DNA of 43,399 bases from Candidatus Aenigmatarchaeota archaeon (GCA_036171435.1 JAVHRC010000073.1:1-43399); one strand, 5' to 3'; positions 2,529 to 40,005 are shown, counted from the stretch's first letter. The notes: generated by a model from the sequence alone, not told the origin. Numbers and translations: made by a program.

Positions 2529-4187
2529 ATGAACGGACAAGGACAAATGGGAGGGCAGAATATATTCGTGCTGCCGGAAGGGACTTTGAGGACTTTGGGA
2601 AGGAACGCACAGCACGCGAACATCGCCGCTGCGAAAGCCGTTGCTGACGCAGTCCGCACAACGCTCGGCCCGAAGGGAATGGACAAGATGTTAGTTGATT
2701 CAATGGGCGACGTTGTGATAACAAACGACGGGGTAACAATTCTTGAGGAAATGGAAATAGAACACCCGGCGGCAAAAATGATGGTTGAGGTTGCAAAGAC
2801 GCAGGAAGAAGAGGTTGGAGACGGGACAACAACAGCCGCAGTTCTTGCTGGAGAACTTCTGAAAAAGGCGGAAGTGTTGCTTGACCAGAACGTGCATTCA
2901 ACCGTGATAACGAAAGGTTTCAGGCTTGCAAAGGAAAAGGCGCTTGAGCTCATGAACAGCATTTCAAAGGAGATAAAGCCGAGCGACAGCAGCACGCTGA
3001 AAAAAATAGCAATAACCGCGATGACAGGAAAAAGTGCTGAGCGCGCAAGCGAGCATCTCGCGGACATAGCAGTGCAGGCAGTGAAAATGGTCATGGACGA
3101 GGAGAACGGCAAGATAGAGGTTGACACGGACAACATACAAATCGAGAAGAAGCACGGAGGAAGCATCGAAGACACTGAATTGATAAAAGGAATAGTCATA
3201 GACAAGGAAGTTGTGCATCCTGGAATGCCAAAACATTTGAAGGACGCGAGAATCGCGCTCGTGGATTCAGCCCTTGAAGTAAAAGAAACTGAGACTGACG
3301 CGGAGATAAGGATAACTTCGCCGGAACAGATGCAGGCATTCATAGAGCAGGAGGAAAAAATGCTGAGAGACATGGTGGAAAAGGTCGCGGCAAGCGGAGC
3401 GAACGTCTTGCTCTGCCAGAAAGGCATTGACGACATAGCGCAGCACTATCTTGCGAAGAAGGGAATAATGTCCGCAAGACGCGTGAAAAAATCCGACATG
3501 GAAAAACTCGCTCGCGCAACAAAGGGCAGGATTGTGACAAGCCTGAAGGACATTTCAAAAGAAGACTTGGGATTCGCTGCGATTGTAGAAGAGAAAAAGA
3601 TAGCGGGAGAGCAGATGATTTTCGTTCGCGAGTGCAAGGACCCGAAAGCTGTTTCAATACTCATCCGCGGCGGAACAGAGCACGTGATTGAAGAGGTAAA
3701 AAGGGCAATGGACGACGCAGTCGGCGGTGTCGCGTCCTCGCTTGAAGTTGGGAAAGTTGTCGCGGGAGGCGGAGCTCCTGAAGCTGCAGTTGCAAAAGGC
3801 TTGCGCGAGTTTTCCCAGAAATATTCGGGAAGGGAGCAACTTGCAATACAGGCGTTCGCTGAAGCGCTTGAAGTAATACCAAGGTCGCTTGCGGAGAACG
3901 CAGGGCTTGACCCGATAGACATTCTTGTGGCTTTGCGCGTAGCGCACGACAGCGGAAAAACGACGGCGGGCGTTGACGTGTTTTCCGGAAAAGTGATAGA
4001 TATGTGGGAAGCCGGAGTGATCGAGCCGCTAAAAATAAAGACGCAGGCAATCAAGTCAGCGTCAGAGGCTGCGGAAATGATTTTGAGAATAGATGACATA
4101 ATTTCCGCGGGCAAGCTCTCGCACGGCGGCGGAGGAATGCCGGGCGGAATGCCTCCCGGAATGGGCGGTATGGAAGGGATGGAGTAA
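2529..4187 (+). CDS. ths: Thermosome subunit (group II chaperonin)
   Basis: 552 aa with [65 protein letters not shown] and a Gly/Met-rich C-terminal tail ([20 protein letters not shown]). GGTGA lies 5 nt upstream of the ATG. Confidence 0.97.
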
Positions 4188-7704: not shown

Positions 7705-8585
7705 CGAATTTGTGGGACTCTTTAAAAAATGCCGCATTCAAGTTGTTTGGAAAATCTTTGGAGCCTTACATAGACTACTTCAGCAGCATCAAGCCCGACC
7801 TTGAGATGTCAAACATATCTCTGAGTCTTGCAGAATACGTTTATGTCATAATATTTGTGCCTTTTATCATTTTTGCGGCAGAGTTTCCGCTCCTTGCGCT
7901 TATCCTCAGCATACTGACGCACAATATGATTGTATCGTTTTTTCTTTCATTCACTTTGACAATTTTCATTTCATTGCTGGTATTTTTCATATTCTACTCA
8001 TACCCTTCCATGATTTCATCCGGAAGGAAAAAAAACATTGACGGAGCGCTTCCTTTTGCAACAACATACCTGGCTACGGTGGCGGGAAGCAGGGCGCCGC
8101 CTTTGACCATGTTTAAAGTGCTTTCGCAATTCAAGGAATACGGGGAAATAGCAAATGAAGCCAAGAAAATATACAGGGATGTTTCTGTGTTCGGCATGGA
8201 CTTGACGGCAGCCATAAGAAAAACCGCGTCAAGGACGCCGTCCATGCAGCTGAAGGAGCTGCTTTGGGGAATGACAAACGTCATGACAACGGGCAGCGAT
8301 ATGCCGACATTCCTCAGGGAAAAGTCAAGGGCTTTTATGCAGGAATACAGAAGAAAACTTGATGAATTCTCGCAAAAGCTGTCAACGATTATAGAAATTT
8401 ATCTTACGGTTCTGATAGTTGGCTCCATATTTTTCGTAATATTAAGCTCCATAATGTCACTTTTCAGCAGCGATATGAGCCTTACGCTTTCGTTCGCGCA
8501 GTTCGTTGTAATTTTTCTGGTGATGCCTGCGGTATCGGTCGGCTTTATAATGCTGTTAAAATCAATCTCGCCTTCAATGACATGA
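7701..8585 (+). CDS. Pilus platform membrane protein, single T2SS-F (FlaJ/TadB/TadC-like) domain
   Basis: Overlaps the ATPase stop by 4 nt. It is polytopic, with a cytoplasmic helical segment (PFATTYLATVAGSRAPPLTMFKVL...EYGEIANEAKKIYRDVSVFGMDLTAAIRK) typical of GspF/FlaJ repeats. Confidence 0.8.
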   Translation: MTNLWDSLKNAAFKLFGKSLEPYIDYFSSIKPDLEMSNISLSLAEYVYVIIFVPFIIFAAEFPLLALILSILTHNMIVSFFLSFTLTIFISLLVFFIFYSYPSMISSGRKKNIDGALPFATTYLATVAGSRAPPLTMFKVLSQFKEYGEIANEAKKIYRDVSVFGMDLTAAIRKTASRTPSMQLKELLWGMTNVMTTGSDMPTFLREKSRAFMQEYRRKLDEFSQKLSTIIEIYLTVLIVGSIFFVILSSIMSLFSSDMSLTLSFAQFVVIFLVMPAVSVGFIMLLKSISPSMT

Positions 8586-10055: not shown

Positions 10056-10201
10056 GGGTCTATAGTCTATCGGTAGGATGCTACCCTCACACGGTAGAGA
10101 GCCTGGTTCAATAAGCCCTTTTCTTTTTAATCCGAAAGTGCAAAAGAAAAGCGCTTGCGGAAAAGAAAATAAAGAAACTGAGATTCCGGGTAGACCCACC
10201 A
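10056..10201 (+). tRNA. tRNA-Val (anticodon CAC) with a 72-nt intron in the T-loop (59/60); CCA encoded
   Basis: Hand-folded. Acceptor GGGTCTA/TAGACCC, discriminator A. Anticodon arm CTACC-CTCACAC-GGTAG. T-stem CCTGG (10102-10106) / CCGGG (10186-10190). Spliced T-loop TTCAATT. Confidence 0.85.
10113..10184 (+). other. tRNA intron at 59/60 (hBH motif); diverged member of the shared intron family
   Basis: The T-stem forms the outer helix. The central 4-bp helix is TTCA (10107-10110) with TGAG (10179-10182). The 3-nt bulges are AT|A and AT|T. The core hairpin GCCCTTTTCTTTT/AAAAGAAAAGCGC and the purine-rich tail are homologous to 37068..37132 and 38531..38590. Confidence 0.75.
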
Positions 10202-14588: not shown

Positions 14589-15236
14589 TCACGGCTTGAA
14601 GAACGTCACGGAGAAATATCTGACCTTGTTTTCATCGTCAACGACAGCCCAGAGCATGTTCGCGCGGATGTTGTGCGCAAGGCGGACGGCGCGCGACATT
14701 TCCTGAAATCCGAAAACGAACTTTTTCGGCACAGCAAAAACAATCCATTTCGTGTGCTCGTGCGCCTGCTTCTGCCCGCGCTTCAGCGGCTTGACGCCGC
14801 GGTTGTATACGCGGAAATCGCAGCCGAACTTGAATCCGGTTCTTGTCGGCAAACCGCGCTCTCGCAAGTCCTTGTAGACAATGTATCTTTCCCAAAACCG
14901 CGGGTCAATCTCGGAGCAATATTTGTAAAATTCGCCGGATGCAATATTTTTTCCATTATCCAACAATTCAATTTTATTTTTCTCAAGCAAAAGCGCAGCC
15001 TCTATCAGCGCAAGTTCTAACCTATCCTCCTTCAGCTTCCCGTAAAAGTCATTCTCGAAAATATCTTTCGCTTCCTCCCTGTCCCAGACAAAAACCTTGT
15101 CTTCCGCGAGCCGCGCCTCTATCTTCTTTTGCGATTTTTGTTCTTCTTTTTGAAGTTCTGGAAGACGCACTTCCTCTTTCCTCTCTTTTTTCTGCTTGTT
15201 TTTCTTGGGCATAATCATCACATTATTTATTTTCAC
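14589..15236 (-). CDS. endA: tRNA-splicing endonuclease, catalytic-type (alpha-like) subunit with a Lys/Glu-rich N-terminal extension
   Basis: YKDLRERGLPTRTGFKFGCDFRVY...AHEHTKWIVF...AVRLAHNIR matches the EndA C-terminal catalytic domain, including the Tyr (FRVY) and His (EHTKW). The start is uncertain: GTG at 15236 overlaps the upstream stop, and ATGs at 15218/15212 are possible. Confidence 0.85.
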   Translation of the reverse strand: MKINNVMIMPKKNKQKKERKEEVRLPELQKEEQKSQKKIEARLAEDKVFVWDREEAKDIFENDFYGKLKEDRLELALIEAALLLEKNKIELLDNGKNIASGEFYKYCSEIDPRFWERYIVYKDLRERGLPTRTGFKFGCDFRVYNRGVKPLKRGQKQAHEHTKWIVFAVPKKFVFGFQEMSRAVRLAHNIRANMLWAVVDDENKVRYFSVTFFKP

Positions 15237-15754
15237 GGCTGGAGCTCGTTCAGAATATAATACGTGCAGTCCGAATCGTTGTCAACAATCGCCCATAACG
15301 CTATCGTCCTGATGTTCTGCGCGAGTTTTGTGGCGCGCTCGAGCAAATCAAGGCCGCAGGGATAGTCCTCGCCCGCAACGAAAACAATCCATTTCACGTT
15401 CTCGGCTTTTTCCGGCTTCGCGCCGCGCTCGTAAACGCGGAAGTCGCTTCCCTTGAAGCCTATCCGGACCGGCAGACCGCGCTCGCGCAGGTCCTTGTAA
15501 ACCGCGTAAAGCGATGCAAACCTCTTGTTCCTTGAGCAGAAATGGTAGAAATCCGCGAACTTCATTTTCTTTCCATCAAGAATTATGTCAAGCCTTCCGC
15601 GCTCCTGCAGAAGCAGTGCCTCCGCGAAACCAAGCTCAAGTTTCTCGTCTTTCAGATTTCCATACCAGCCCGAATCGAAAATATCCTTTGCCGCTGAAGC
15701 GTCCTCCACAACCACTTTATCATCAATCACTTTTCCTTCCGCCATTTTTATCAC
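15233..15754 (-). CDS. tRNA-splicing endonuclease paralog, structural-type (beta-like) subunit
   Basis: Same fold signature (YKDLRERGLPVRIGFKGSDFRVYERGAKP...VKWIVF...ATKLAQNIR), but the His-containing insert of the neighbouring paralog is absent. It is translationally coupled to 14589..15236. Confidence 0.8.
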   Translation of the reverse strand: MIKMAEGKVIDDKVVVEDASAAKDIFDSGWYGNLKDEKLELGFAEALLLQERGRLDIILDGKKMKFADFYHFCSRNKRFASLYAVYKDLRERGLPVRIGFKGSDFRVYERGAKPEKAENVKWIVFVAGEDYPCGLDLLERATKLAQNIRTIALWAIVDNDSDCTYYILNELQP

Positions 15755-36874: not shown

Positions 36875-37067
36875 AAATTATTTTTGATTATTAATTACCT
36901 ATCTATTGGACAAATATGTATATAAAGTTAAGCGGCTGCTTTCAAGTGGCAACTTTTCGCAAGAAATTAAAGCATTAAATAGGTTTCAACCAAAATAAAA
37001 CTTACGCTGAGGTAGCCAAGCGGTACGGCGCTAGCCTGCTAAGCTAGTTCCCGCAAGGGATCGTGGG

Positions 37068-37132
37068 AGGCCTTTTTCTTTACAAAAGAAAAACGCCTGC
37101 GAAAAAGAAAGAATAAGAAAAAGGTCCGCGAA
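37068..37132 (+). other. tRNA-Ser intron 1 at 53/54 (HBh' motif); member of the shared intron family
   Basis: The central helix is CGTG (37062-37065) with CGCG (37127-37130). The 5' bulge is GG|A. The 9-bp inner helix is GGCCTTTTT (37069-37077) with AAAAAGGTC (37118-37126). The 3' cut falls 2 nt after the helix (AA|T), which puts TTCGAAA at the start of the next exon. Confidence 0.7.
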
Positions 37133-37138
37133 TTCGAA

Positions 37139-37225
37139 ATTGGGATAGGGAAAGAAATTTCCTTTGGTTGATGCTCTTCAAGAGGAAGAGGTTACCCAAA
37201 GGGGAAACCTTAGGTTTCCCCTGGT
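37139..37225 (+). other. tRNA-Ser second T-arm insertion (putative intron 2, boundaries approximate)
   Basis: It must be removed to join TTCGAA (37133-37138) to T60 plus CCCAT. The insert is highly structured, with helices 37149-37153/37158-37162, 37163-37167/37196-37200, 37174-37179/37185-37190 and 37201-37209/37213-37221. I could not find a complete BHB by hand. Confidence 0.45.
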
Positions 37226-37261
37226 TCCCATCCTCAGCGCCAATAATTTTAAAGTGGTTTC

Positions 37262-37579
37262 ATGAAGGTTGTCTATGTTTGCTGCCCGAAAAACTTTGAG
37301 GCAATGGAAACTTTGTCAAGGGCTATGGGGCTTGATACGCTTCCGCTCGTCCCGCATTTCGTGTTTTCCGGATTTGAGCAGAAGTTCGGGAAGAAATACG
37401 CGGACATGTGCAGGCTGAATCTGATGGAGAAATGCGAGGAGATTTGGGTACTTACCTCATACAGCTCGCAGGAAATGAAGGAGGATTTGGAGCACGCGAA
37501 GAAAAACAACATTCCCGTCGTGAACAAGTGGCAGGAAATCATAAGACAGGAGGAGGAGAAATTGAAACTGAAACTGTAA
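37262..37579 (+). CDS. Hypothetical protein (possibly DUF4406 / nucleoside-deoxyribosyltransferase-like fold)
   Basis: 105-aa ORF between two tRNA genes. The segment CEEIWVLTSYSSQEMKEDLEHAKKNNIPVV loosely resembles the C-terminal block of DUF4406/DUF1937 proteins. Confidence 0.45.
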   Translation: MKVVYVCCPKNFEAMETLSRAMGLDTLPLVPHFVFSGFEQKFGKKYADMCRLNLMEKCEEIWVLTSYSSQEMKEDLEHAKKNNIPVVNKWQEIIRQEEEKLKLKL

Positions 37580-37591
37580 AACTATTAAAAC

Positions 37592-37706
37592 GGGCCGGTG
37601 GTCTAGTTCGGTTATGACGCCAAGTCAATACGCATGAATTTTTATGCGTGGACGCGGACCCCTTACAAGGTGGATACCGCAAGTTCAAATCTTGCCCGGC
37701 CCACCA
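37592..37706 (+). tRNA. tRNA-Val (anticodon UAC) with a 37-nt intron at 29/30; CCA encoded
   Basis: Hand-folded. Acceptor GGGCCGG/CCGGCCC, discriminator A. Intact T-arm GCAAG-TTCAAAT-CTTGC. The anticodon arm CCA|CC-CTTACAA-GGTGG forms only after removing 37623-37659. Confidence 0.85.
37623..37659 (+). other. tRNA intron at non-canonical position 29/30
   Basis: BHB-like fold. The inner helix is GTC (37624-37626) with GAC (37651-37653). The 5' bulge is CA|A. The central helix is CGC (37618-37620) with GCG (37654-37656) plus an A-G mismatch. The 3' bulge is AC|C. An internal hairpin ACGCAT/ATGCGT is also present. Confidence 0.7.
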
Positions 37707-38400: not shown

Positions 38401-38484
38401 ATTTTTTAATGATTATCTGTGTATTTATATTCTTTGCAGGAAAACTAATATTTGACTTGAAATATGGGCTGGTAGATCAACGGA

Positions 38485-38497
38485 AAACGATCGTTAA
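38485..38497 (+). other. 13-nt mini-intron in the D-loop of tRNA-Ala (hBH motif)
   Basis: The D-stem GATC (38475-38478) / GATC (38499-38502) is the outer helix. The central helix is AACG (38479-38482) with CGTT (38492-38495). The bulges are GA|A and AA|A. The spliced D-loop is AACGGAA. Confidence 0.55.
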
Positions 38498-38530
38498 AGA
38501 TCGCCACCTTGGCATGGTGGAGGTTCCGAG

Positions 38531-38590
38531 AGGCCTTTTTCTTTTCAAAAGAAAAACGCCTGCGAAAAAGAAAGAATAAAGGCTCGGGAG
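38531..38590 (+). other. tRNA-Ala intron at 53/54 (HBh' motif); member of the shared intron family
   Basis: The central helix is TCCG (38525-38528) with CGGG (38585-38588). The 5' bulge is AG|A. The inner helix is GGCCTTT (38532-38538) with AAAGGCT (38578-38584). The 3' cut is AG|T. The first 49 nt match 37068-37116 with one substitution. Confidence 0.7.
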
Positions 38591-38596
38591 TTCGAA

Positions 38597-38684
38597 AATG
38601 CACGAGAGAAAAACGCAAGTTCAACGGAACGGGGGTATCAGGAAAACCCTTGAACTGAAGGGGGCGGAGCCCCCTGCGGTTCGG
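38597..38684 (+). other. tRNA-Ala second T-arm insertion (putative intron, boundaries approximate)
   Basis: It lies between TTCGAA (38591-38596) and T60 plus CTCGG. The structured helices are 38603-38607/38685-38689, 38614-38616/38676-38678, 38618-38624/38650-38656 and 38660-38665/38669-38674. No complete BHB was found by hand. Confidence 0.45.
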
Positions 38685-38745
38685 TCTCGGCCAGTCCACC
38701 ACTTCTTCAAAAGCTATTTAAAACATAAAACAAAATCTTGATTCT

Positions 38746-40005
38746 ATGTCCGACTTTATTGAGGTTAATGCGGATTTGCATTTGCACGGGCTTTATTCTG
38801 CGGCTGTGAGCAGCGAGATGGTGCCGAGAAAAATCGGCGAGCAGGCGCCGCTGAAAGGGCTGCACCTCGTCGGAACCGGCGACATTCTGAACGAGAGATG
38901 GATAAGACTTTTGAAAGAGCAGCTGAAACCTTTGAACGACTCGATGTTCGAGCATGAGAACGGGACAAAATTCGTTTTGCAGACGGAAATTGAAGACAAC
39001 AATCGCGTCCACCATATAATATTGTTTCCGAGCCTGAGCAAGGTTTATGAAGTGCGCGAGAAGATGAAAAAATCCTGCAAAAACCTTGACTCCGACGGCC
39101 GCCCGAAGATATGGCTCAACGGGGAGGATATAGCCGAAATCTGCCTGGAAGCAGGCTGCCTTCTCGGCCCTTCCCATATGTTCACCCCTTATTTCGGAAT
39201 TTATTCAAAATACAACTCCTACAAGGACTGTTACGGAAAATATTGGGATAAAATTTATTTCGGCGAACTCGGCCTTTCAGCAGACACTGACATGGCTGAC
39301 AGGATTGAGGAGTTGCGTGGATTGACTTTCCTGAGCAACAGCGACTGCCACAGCCCTTGGCCAAACAAGCTCGGAAGGGAATTCACAAGATTTCTTATGA
39401 AGGATATTTCCTTTGATGAGCTGGAAAAAGCAATAAAGCGCGAGGACGGAAGAAAACCGATTCTTAATATTAAATTCGACCCGCGAGAGGGAAAATACCA
39501 CAAGACGCGCTGCACAGGCTGTTTGCTTTTTTTCAAGCCAGAAGAAGCAATACAGTTAAAATGGCGCTGCCCGGTTTGCAAGAAGACAATAAAAAAAGGC
39601 GTTGACTTCAGAATTTATGAATTGTCCCACGGCGCCGAAACCTCTCACCCGGAGCACAGGGCAAAAACGGTTCATATAATTCCGCTCTCGGAGATAATCG
39701 CCGTTGCGCTCGGAATAAAACAGTCGTGGTCTTTGAAAGTGCAGGAACAGTGGAAACTTTTTGCCAGCAAATTCGGAAACGAAATAACAGCGCTTGTTGA
39801 TACACCTATTGAAAAATTGGCCGAAGTTGACAAAAAAACAGCAGAGCTTGTCAAGGCTTTCAGAAAGAGCGAGTTCAATTATGTTCCTGGCGGCGCGGGC
39901 GTTTACGGTATTCCCGTTCCTCCCGGAAAGAAAGCTGAAACAAAATATTATGAGCAGTCGCAAAGAGCGGAGCAGAAAAGCCTTGGGGATTTCAAGAAAC
40001 AATAA
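38746..40005 (+). CDS. Endonuclease Q-like protein (PHP-domain phosphoesterase with zinc ribbon, COG1379)
   Basis: N-terminal ADLHLHGLYSAAVS (PHP metal site). The CHSPW block and the CTGC...CPVC zinc ribbon are in the position seen in EndoQ. The 419-aa size fits. Confidence 0.8.
   Translation: MSDFIEVNADLHLHGLYSAAVSSEMVPRKIGEQAPLKGLHLVGTGDILNERWIRLLKEQLKPLNDSMFEHENGTKFVLQTEIEDNNRVHHIILFPSLSKVYEVREKMKKSCKNLDSDGRPKIWLNGEDIAEICLEAGCLLGPSHMFTPYFGIYSKYNSYKDCYGKYWDKIYFGELGLSADTDMADRIEELRGLTFLSNSDCHSPWPNKLGREFTRFLMKDISFDELEKAIKREDGRKPILNIKFDPREGKYHKTRCTGCLLFFKPEEAIQLKWRCPVCKKTIKKGVDFRIYELSHGAETSHPEHRAKTVHIIPLSEIIAVALGIKQSWSLKVQEQWKLFASKFGNEITALVDTPIEKLAEVDKKTAELVKAFRKSEFNYVPGGAGVYGIPVPPGKKAETKYYEQSQRAEQKSLGDFKKQ

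Follow-up and report, generated by a model that had tools for sequence, protein, structure and literature searches.

The window analysed here is a 43,399-nt stretch of DNA from a Candidatus Aenigmatarchaeota archaeon (GCA_036171435.1 JAVHRC010000073.1:1-43399). It contains four disrupted tRNA genes, Ser(GCT), Ala(GGC), Val(TAC) and Val(CAC) (Table 1). In the Ser and Ala genes, the T-arm is interrupted twice, by an intron at position 53/54 (intron 1) and by a structured insert at 59/60. The 59/60 inserts are the subject of this study. ARAGORN called none of the four genes (0/4) in the unspliced window. At the Rfam gathering threshold, just the 5′ part of the Val(CAC) gene was reported, at the threshold score, and the other three genes were missed. 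After splicing in silico, ARAGORN called Ser(gct), Ala(ggc), Val(tac) and Val(cac). The Ser product, with intron 1 and the 59/60 insert removed, was 85 nt long; the Ala product was 75 nt long, and a 13-nt intron in its D-loop must also be removed. These canonical products agree with a preliminary description of the window, which had taken the 59/60 inserts for introns and whose coordinates for the TTCGAA segments, the inserts and the T-stem copies described below were all correct. A syntenic protein search assigned the window to Candidatus Aenigmatarchaeota (DPANN), the nearest contig being 95% identical in a neighbouring protein. DPANN genomes often seem short of tRNAs, for which the cause given is undetected disrupted, and partly unpredicted, tRNA genes (PMC5829648).

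Table 1. Disrupted tRNA genes of the window, their inserts and the endonuclease genes. Arrows mark splice sites or predicted cuts. BHB, bulge-helix-bulge; h, H and h′, outer, central and inner helices; B, bulge; MFE, minimum free energy fold.
Feature	Position	Strand	Remarks
tRNA-Ser(GCT), CCA encoded	37006-37242	+	exons 37006-37067, 37133-37138, 37226-37242
Ser intron 1, position 53/54	37068-37132 (65 nt)	+	relaxed HBh′: H CGTG/CGCG, bulge GG↓A, h′ 12 bp, 3′ site AA↓T
Ser micro-exon TTCGAA, T-loop positions 54-59	37133-37138	+	6 nt; needed to rebuild T-loop TTCGAAT
Ser insert 2 at 59/60, Ser-type ('S') body	37139-37225 (87 nt)	+	homologs in relatives; only 13 nt here in some
Predicted split of Ser insert	outer mini-intron core 37139-37152, inner module 37153-37225	+	register ±1 nt
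TGGGA, intronic copy of T-stem 5′ strand	37141-37145	+	pairs with TCCCA 37226-37230 (U60, C61-A64); in MFE
TAGGG, forward strand of short helix beside copy	37146-37150	+	pairs with CCCTG 37219-37223
2-nt bulge	G37224 T37225	+	just before 3′ splice site 37225↓37226
AAA, candidate second bulge (B1) of BHB-like motif	37151-37153	+	predicted internal cut 37152↓37153
Candidate Ser h′	GAAATTT 37154-60 with AGGTTTC 37212-18	+	constrained fold
Three hairpins of Ser-type body	37148-63 (GNRA-type loop), 37164-99, 37200-22 (10 bp)	+	MFE
tRNA-Ala(GGC), G3:U70, CCA encoded	38466-38701	+	interruptions: D-loop 38485-38497, 53/54 38531-38590, 59/60 38597-38684
Ala D-loop mini-intron AAACGATCGTTAA	38485-38497 (13 nt)	+	perfect hBH: h = D-stem GATC/GATC, H AACG/CGTT, bulge AA↓A
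Ala intron 1, position 53/54	38531-38590 (60 nt)	+	H TCCG/CGGG, bulge AG↓A, h′ 7 bp
Ala micro-exon TTCGAA	38591-38596	+	
Ala insert at 59/60	38597-38684 (88 nt)	+	
CGAGA, intronic copy in Ala	38603-38607	+	complementary to TCTCG 38685-89 (U60 + 3′ strand); 2-nt bulge GG, helix GAA/TTC
Predicted Ala outer mini-intron core AATGCA-CGAGA-GAAAA	38597-38612	+	spacer, copy, then GAA able to pair U54-C56, leaving AA↓U60
Predicted Ala inner module, Ala-type ('A') body	38613-38684	+	register ±1 nt; BHB-like motif at its bounds
Ala BHB-like motif	h CGAGA/TCTCG; bulge GG↓U60 (38683-84); H GAA 38608-10/TTC 38680-82	+	
Ala BHB-like motif, inner side	bulge AAA 38611-13; h′ CGCA 38614-17/TGCG 38675-78	+	
tRNA-Val(TAC)	37592-37706	+	37-nt intron at 29/30 (37623-37659)
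tRNA-Val(CAC)	10056-10201	+	72-nt intron-1-family intron at 59/60 (10113-10184); spliced product tRNA-Val(cac)
Two adjacent tRNA-splicing endonuclease genes	14589-15754	-	alpha-like 14589-15236 (215 aa), beta-like 15233-15754 (173 aa)

Both T-arm positions, 53/54 and 59/60, are established non-canonical intron positions (PMC4090602). In the spliced Ser tRNA, the T-stem pairs GTGGG (37063-67) with CCCAT (37227-31), and U60 is nucleotide 37226. The T-loop restored by splicing, TTCGAAT, is that of the intron-free Ala T-arms of the relatives L001, L016 and L026, among which L001 and L026 have intron-poor Ala orthologs. Placing the splice site at 58/59 or 60/61 gave T-loops that were inconsistent across homologs, whereas 59/60 always yielded TTCGAAT.

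Intron 1 is, by its sequence and distribution, an ordinary intron of a mobile family. According to a BHB scan, it forms a relaxed HBh′ motif in both genes: a 4-bp helix joins exon positions 48-51 with the 3′ end of the intron, the 5′ site lies in a 3-nt bulge, and the 3′ site lies 2 nt beyond a long inner helix. The 4-bp helix is compensated between hosts, being CGTG/CGCG in Ser and TCCG/CGGG in Ala. A 33-nt core is identical in the two genes and was also found, in metagenomic contigs, in other tRNAs and at other positions, including the canonical 37/38. In two contigs (L011, ~3777-3805, minus strand; L013, ~8070-8098, plus strand) the context of this core is not tRNA-like and reads GATACCTGCAAAGTGTCCTGAAAAGGACATACCCGCAAGGGCGG...TGAGTCCTG↓AGGCC...; the core may there belong to an intron of another structured RNA. 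In the tRNA-Ser gene of L026 (39-375), intron 1 itself bears small two-hairpin modules known from L001.

The Ser and Ala genes of relatives were collected by a metagenome scan with the intron-1 core, through homologs of the two proteins that flank the tRNA cluster, and from one genome scan. The flanking genes encode a DUF7768 protein (37262-37579, plus strand) and a TIGR00375 / MJ0043_C-family protein (38746-40005, plus strand). This synteny is kept across Aenigmatarchaeota contigs, which made a comparative series of the two tRNA genes possible; the more distant relatives L003-L007 yielded no informative tRNA genes by synteny. Among relatives whose neighbouring DUF7768 protein is 77-92% identical, the exons are identical while the 59/60 inserts range from 0 to 185 nt. 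Overall, the exons are perfectly conserved and cloverleaf-competent in >10 lineages while introns turn over. Because the exons are constant while the inserts vary, the genes are under selection and the inserts must be removed; by this logic of sequence comparison, the inserts are introns.

The content of the 59/60 site varies in a modular manner. The site is empty in the Ala genes of L001, L016 and L026-28, and it holds a 13-nt mini-intron alone in the Ser genes of L016 (ATATGGGAGAAAA), L017-22 (ATTGGGAAGAAAA) and L023 (AAATGGGAGAAAG). The body of the window's Ser insert, here termed Ser-type, occupies 59/60 in the Ser genes of L014, L024 and L025 and in the Ala genes of L014, L017, L024 and L029, and it was also found at the canonical 37/38 of a tRNA-Ala in L024. 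The Ala-type body occupies 59/60 in the Ala genes of L002 and L023 and, with a Ser copy, in the Ser gene of L026. The same sequence is thus found in different tRNAs and positions and is present or absent among close relatives, which is how a mobile intron is recognised. The occurrence of the Ser-type body in another tRNA and position and the exchange of bodies indicate that the elements are mobile and that any particular body is dispensable. A homolog search had been proposed in the preliminary description; it located both bodies in the tRNAs of relatives, but each is present once in the window, with no further copies there, and neither belongs to an Rfam family.

Sequence comparison also shows that the large inserts are composite. 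The L002-Ala and L026-Ser inserts start with exact 13-nt mini-intron sequences, ATACGAGAGAAAA and TAATGGGAGAAAA, respectively, and in a relaxed scan the L001-Ser and L023-Ala inserts resolve as mini-introns that hold two small introns in tandem, both having a good H and h′. Nesting is also clear in L029-Ala and in the D-loop mini-intron. The L001-Ser and L023-Ala structures indicate that nesting is common in this lineage. The 59/60 insert of the L023 tRNA-Ala gene (2570-2940) is 185 nt long and has at least three layers of inserted modules; small hairpins with GAA loops (GCGAAGC type) recur in the L023 and L026 modules. In L002, L014, L016 and L024, the loop of the Ala D-loop mini-intron houses a 50-60-nt intron-1-like element. 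The borders of the D-loop mini-intron are ambiguous within runs of A and were defined against the Ala gene of L001, which lacks it.

Each insert carries, close to its 5′ end, a 5-nt copy of the T-stem 5′ strand. In all 16 distinct inserts, the copy is complementary to U60-N64 of its own host (TGGGA in Ser, CGAGA in Ala). Both bodies were found in both hosts, with the copy exchanged to fit the host. In two large inserts, the 5-mer of the other host occurs only deep within the body (position 36 of L025-Ser and position 23 of L024-Ala). Eight Ser-type elements, of which seven are T-loop inserts, were aligned with structure as a guide. Every cell of the copy helix pairs in this alignment, and two of the five pairs are compensatory between Ser and Ala hosts (UA<->CG and GC<->AU); controls in which the partner strand was slid show no such changes. 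Within the window, 2-3% of shuffles per gene have a host-matched 5-mer that starts within the first 12 nt, and 0.2-0.3% have it together with the bulge and second helix. The window by itself is therefore suggestive, and the 16/16 host match removes doubt about the copy. As judged from this comparison, the copy is functional.

Next to the copy lies a second, short helix. It reads TAGGG/CCCTG in Ser hosts; in Ala hosts that carry the Ser-type body it reads AGGG/CCCT, and the Ala-type body has GAA/TTC. Two nucleotides are unpaired before U60 in the large inserts except L025-Ser, which has three in its best-supported register. In Ala hosts of the Ser-type body, 1 nt has been lost on each strand, and a 4-bp helix and the 2-nt bulge are kept; this paired deletion preserves the geometry before U60. 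The bulge and short helix after the copy were not seen in the stand-alone 13-nt forms or in L001. Comparative sequence data thus place the 3′ splice site in a conserved helix-bulge-helix. The pairing of the copy with the 3′ exon and the helix, 2-nt bulge and helix before U60 had both been read from the window alone in the preliminary description, and both hold in the relatives.

In the minimum free energy fold, the Ser insert forms a four-way junction of the copy helix and three hairpins. Its z-score is -2.8, or -3.5 with flanks; that of the Ala insert is about -2.1. In the eight-sequence alignment, 95.5% of the cells of the Ser-type hairpins pair and six pairs change on both sides, against 0 in slid controls. 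The four-way junction had been anticipated, with an arm of 9 bp that proved to have 10. For the AGTTCAA/TTGAACT arm noted in the Ala insert, the sequences show a supporting exchange of A-U for U-A in L002. E-value scans of both genes and of L029 against Rfam matched neither insert to a family and gave no ribozyme. In L029, the string CUGAUGA...GAAAC was considered as a hammerhead and rejected. A C/D-box RNA was also rejected: the UGAUGC of the Ser insert is unconserved among homologs, a D box is absent and Rfam gave no match.

The 3′ splice site has a further implication. The strand that pairs with the 3′ exon and the 3′ end of the intron is itself intronic so that, by the fixed spacing of the endonuclease, the partner cut would fall inside the insert. 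Both bodies have AAA at the corresponding position. From the modelled folds, we predict the partner cut near 37152↓37153 in Ser and 38612↓38613 in Ala. Neither this internal cut nor the composite build, a 13-16-nt mini-intron plus a mobile module, was part of the preliminary description.

We also examined the 5′ junction, TTCGAA↓. As the preliminary description had reported, it has no canonical bulge: no strict hBHBh′ motif, in which two 3-nt bulges flank a 4-bp helix, spans 37138↓39 with 37225↓26 or 38596↓97 with 38684↓85 in the two genes, or the equivalent junctions in any homolog. A strict BHB scan of both genes returned only the intron-1 motifs and chance matches. A relaxed scan (H of 3-4 bp, h′ of ≥3 bp) detected no motif at TTCGAA↓, though it did pick out good inner introns in L001 and L023. 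The pairing CGAA:TTCG (38593-96 with 38680-83), proposed earlier for Ala, is not conserved, TTCG being TTCC in L002 and L023. In no large insert do the last nucleotides pair with U54-G57, as they would in the standard design for 59/60. L002-Ala, where the 59/60 insert occurs without intron 1, excludes a pairing between the micro-exon and intron 1. A pseudoknot that combines U54-C56:GAA with the copy helix is topologically possible, but by reasoning alone would not give the endonuclease its geometry.

An ordinary T-loop intron of the window served as a positive control. The unconstrained minimum free energy fold of the Val(CAC) 59/60 intron contains the T-stem, UUCA:UGAG and a 3-nt bulge, AU↓U60, which together form a textbook hBH. 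This is the established arrangement, in which the exon strand passes through the outer helix, a 4-bp helix and 2 nt before the cut. The three stand-alone mini-introns consist of a spacer, a copy and GAAAA. Folded with RNAfold with the T-stem imposed, they gave the T-stem, U54U55C56:GAA and a 3-nt bulge (AA↓U60 or AG↓U60), with the 5′ junction in the loop, 2 nt past the U54-C56 helix, corresponding to a relaxed hBH or bulge-helix-loop. The D-loop mini-intron of Ala shares this design, with a perfect 4-bp AACG/CGTT. In every insert, GAA or GGG occurs 0-4 nt after the copy. The 13-16-nt core alone folds to hBH, whereas the full insert shows no bulge at the 5′ junction. A cut after the second A of AAA would leave U60 joined to AATGCACGAGAGAAAA in Ala and to ATTGGGATAGGGAA in Ser. 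Both remainders are collinear with the mini-introns that stand alone, with the elements in the order spacer, copy, purine tail and AA. The Ala core is likewise collinear with ATATGGGAGAAAA and the other stand-alone mini-introns of Ser genes, as well as with nucleotides 1-13 of the inserts in L002-Ala and L026-Ser. The earlier suggestion of a relaxed motif or ordered splicing pointed in the right direction.

The window also encodes a splicing endonuclease. Pfam domains PF01974 and PF02778 are present in the proteins of both adjacent genes. The alpha-like protein most resembles the catalytic subunit of the Nanoarchaeum equitans heterotetramer, its closest solved structure being 3IEY_A, and keeps the catalytic Tyr and His with a Lys-rich insertion in between. 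The beta-like protein is without the catalytic His and Lys, as in the structural beta subunit. Heteromeric and loop-bearing endonucleases are those known to cut relaxed BHB motifs (PMC5829648), and on the basis of its sequence the enzyme of the window is presumed to remove the inserts. At the position of the canonical catalytic Lys (M. jannaschii K156), the alpha-like subunit has an Ala, in the motif AHNIRANMLW, and a Lys/Arg-rich loop, GVKPLKRGxK, lies between its catalytic Tyr and His. The substitution and the loop are kept in 12/12 aligned homologs (P0011-P0130), of 1157 with E ≤ 1e-10, which suggests that the catalytic Lys has moved to the loop in this DPANN clade.

On balance, we favour a model in which the inserts are composite, protein-spliced tRNA introns at 59/60 whose removal is nested and ordered, the inner module leaving before the mini-intron. 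Each insert would comprise a core (a 2-6-nt spacer, the 5-nt copy and a purine tail) and a mobile structured module at the 3′ side of the core. In the first step, the copy would pair with U60-N64 while the motif of the neighbouring 53/54 intron occupies the true T-stem 5′ strand; by sequestering that strand, the intron-1 motif may leave the copy free to hold the 3′ strand. The copy helix and the short helix would set the 3′ site after the 2-nt bulge, and the partner cut would fall after the AA of AAA. Ligation would then leave a 14-16-nt mini-intron ending in AA. The predicted intermediates are ...TAGGGAA joined to TCCCAT in Ser and ...GAGAGAAAA joined to TCTCGG in Ala; the predicted stand-alone Ala mini-intron is ATACGAGAGAAAA. 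Once the 53/54 intron is gone, the real T-stem could form and U54-U55-C56 could pair with the core GAA (Ala) or GGG (Ser), leaving AA↓U60 as a 3-nt bulge in an hBH motif. TTCGAA↓ would be cut in the loop and the exons joined, giving the predicted mature junction sequences GGTTCGAATCCCAT (Ser) and GAGTTCGAATCTCGG (Ala). The enzymes would be the two-subunit endonuclease of 14589-15754 and a ligase. If both neighbouring introns were cut together, the 6-nt micro-exon would be lost, from which we reason that splicing is ordered.

A broader form of this model, to which we give less than even credence, is that these are recursive protein-spliced introns in which a 13-nt 'adaptor' carrying an exon-strand surrogate docks mobile modules where the invariant T-loop cannot evolve pairing. 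The surrogate would serve for cutting out the module and the real T-arm, afterwards, for cutting out the adaptor; as many as three or four layers occur in relatives.

Several observations weigh against ordered, nested removal. Cleavage at these bonds, the order of the two steps and the register in the Ser gene are all deduced from modelled folds. Constrained folds with the helix and bulge lie 3-3.5 kcal/mol above the minimum (Ser 3, Ala 3.5), and the full BHB-like Ser fold has -33.9 kcal/mol against -40.9 kcal/mol for the minimum; the full Ser-type motif costs 7-9 kcal/mol. For the Ser-type body, it is the competing local hairpins that covariation backs, and one of the compensatory changes disrupts the proposed h′. 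In the alignment of Ser-type elements, there was no covariation for the full BHB-like fold (B1 and h′). The bulges are 2 nt long with U60 paired, H measures 3 or 5 bp where 4 would be expected, and the register could shift by 1 nt. The Ser-type remainder would pair with U54-C56 only by C-G and two G-U. The copy is conserved also in the stand-alone mini-introns, where the hBH model has no need of it. Finally, a stand-alone Ala mini-intron, expected under nested removal, was not found in L026-L032; this search instead gave a Ser gene with an Ala-type body.

The principal alternative, less probable in our estimation but to be taken seriously, is that each insert is a single relaxed intron removed in one round. 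The 3′ site would be cut in the copy-helix conformer and TTCGAA↓ independently in the T-stem conformer, where U54-C56 pair with GAA/GGG beside the copy; there would be no religated intermediate and any internal cut would be incidental. The final product would be the same, the conformers lie within a few kcal/mol, broad-specificity endonucleases cut sites that lack one bulge, and the GAA or GGG needed for the pairing is available 0-4 nt past the copy in each insert. With the body attached, however, no intact bulge beside the U54-C56 helix would anchor the enzyme, and it would be coincidence that the AAA bulge is conserved and that the collinearity with the mini-introns extends over exactly 13 nt. 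The lack of a BHB-type bulge at TTCGAA↓ could also mean that this junction is removed by another route, through a self-cleaving ribozyme in the body or an RNase that reads the copy hairpin; all that is common to the 16 inserts is the spacer, the copy helix and the unpaired nucleotides before U60. We regard this as improbable. Three unrelated bodies and body-less 13-nt forms share the junctions, so that the body cannot be the catalyst. For the same reason, and for want of a relevant Rfam match, a self-cleaving ribozyme or group I intron was rejected. Other RNases would not leave the 2′,3′-cyclic phosphate and 5′-OH that are joined by the archaeal RtcB-type ligase.

A function of the body itself, raised in the preliminary description, would explain a fold that is stronger than shuffles and the compensatory changes in three hairpins. 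Splicing might release the body as a stable circular or guide RNA, or the mature tRNA might retain it as an expansion, and position 59/60 points away from the tRNA core. This, too, we consider improbable: close relatives whose exons are identical have an unrelated body in its place, only 13 nt or nothing at all, and the body also sits at 37/38 of another tRNA. There is no Rfam family for it and one copy per body in the window, the C-box-like UGAUGC is unconserved and the D box is absent. Least probable is that the genes are decaying pseudogenes whose inserts are never processed. Standard tRNA finders do not call the genes, but their exons are perfectly conserved and cloverleaf-competent in >10 lineages, with G3:U70 and the encoded CCA intact.

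The favoured model can be compared with known systems. Among the closest are the multi-intron tRNA genes of Thermoproteales (Crenarchaeota), whose non-canonical BHB introns transpose (Sugahara 2008, Fujishima 2010; summary in PMC4090602). As far as that summary describes them, they share introns at 53/54 and 59/60, several introns per gene, near-identical introns across tRNAs and positions, relaxed motifs (HBh′, hBH) and a heteromeric endonuclease. Set against the same summary, the present case concerns a DPANN host, two introns 6 nt apart in one T-arm, introns within or onto introns, and a 3′ motif whose outer helix is formed with an intronic copy of an exon strand rather than by two exons. 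Transposition of tRNA introns is itself documented in Thermoproteales (PMC4090602). Among orthologs of the window's Val(TAC) gene, those of L001, L014 and L023 lack the 29/30 intron and have an intron near 38/39 instead, and L016, L024 and L025 have further D-loop or variable-region introns. Judged from these orthologs, intron turnover between close relatives is fast.

The (alpha-beta)2 endonuclease of N. equitans and the epsilon2 enzyme of ARMAN-2 cut relaxed bulge-helix-loop substrates (PMC5829648, PMC3239211, PMC12397907). Those substrates likewise have one intact bulge and a central helix, with the other site in a loop, and the enzymes have an extra Lys-bearing loop and belong to DPANN hosts; the 13-nt mini-introns and the Val(CAC) intron of the window fit this motif. 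In the 87/88-nt inserts, by contrast, the intact bulge partners a site inside the intron, so that one round cannot free the 5′ exon junction. The Val(CAC) intron occupies the same site in the same genome and belongs to the intron-1 family, but its last six nucleotides (UGAG-AU) pair with U54-A57 directly, whereas the 3′ ends of the Ser and Ala inserts have no such pairing. Twintrons (Euglena plastids, some group I/II introns) are also recursive, in that the inner intron must be out before the outer one can be spliced. Those are self-splicing or spliceosome-like, whereas here a protein endonuclease that reads shape would cut both layers. Our literature search found no description of nested BHB introns, which does not prove that none exists.

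Overall, the inserts are mobile, composite and probably recursively spliced BHB-type T-loop introns guided by an intronic surrogate of an exon strand. The comparison set shows why tRNA genes are hidden in these genomes: introns are stacked, mobile and partly nested, with as many as two per T-arm. If splicing is recursive, the rules of one BHB per intron and of both junctions in one motif are incomplete, and tRNA finders would need an iterative mode. If the adaptor model is true, the adaptor and the order forced by the micro-exon would present splice sites to the archaeal endonuclease in a manner not yet described. The host-matched copy provides a testable handle on what guides the endonuclease at sites whose exon is unable to pair with the intron, and on how introns spread between genes.

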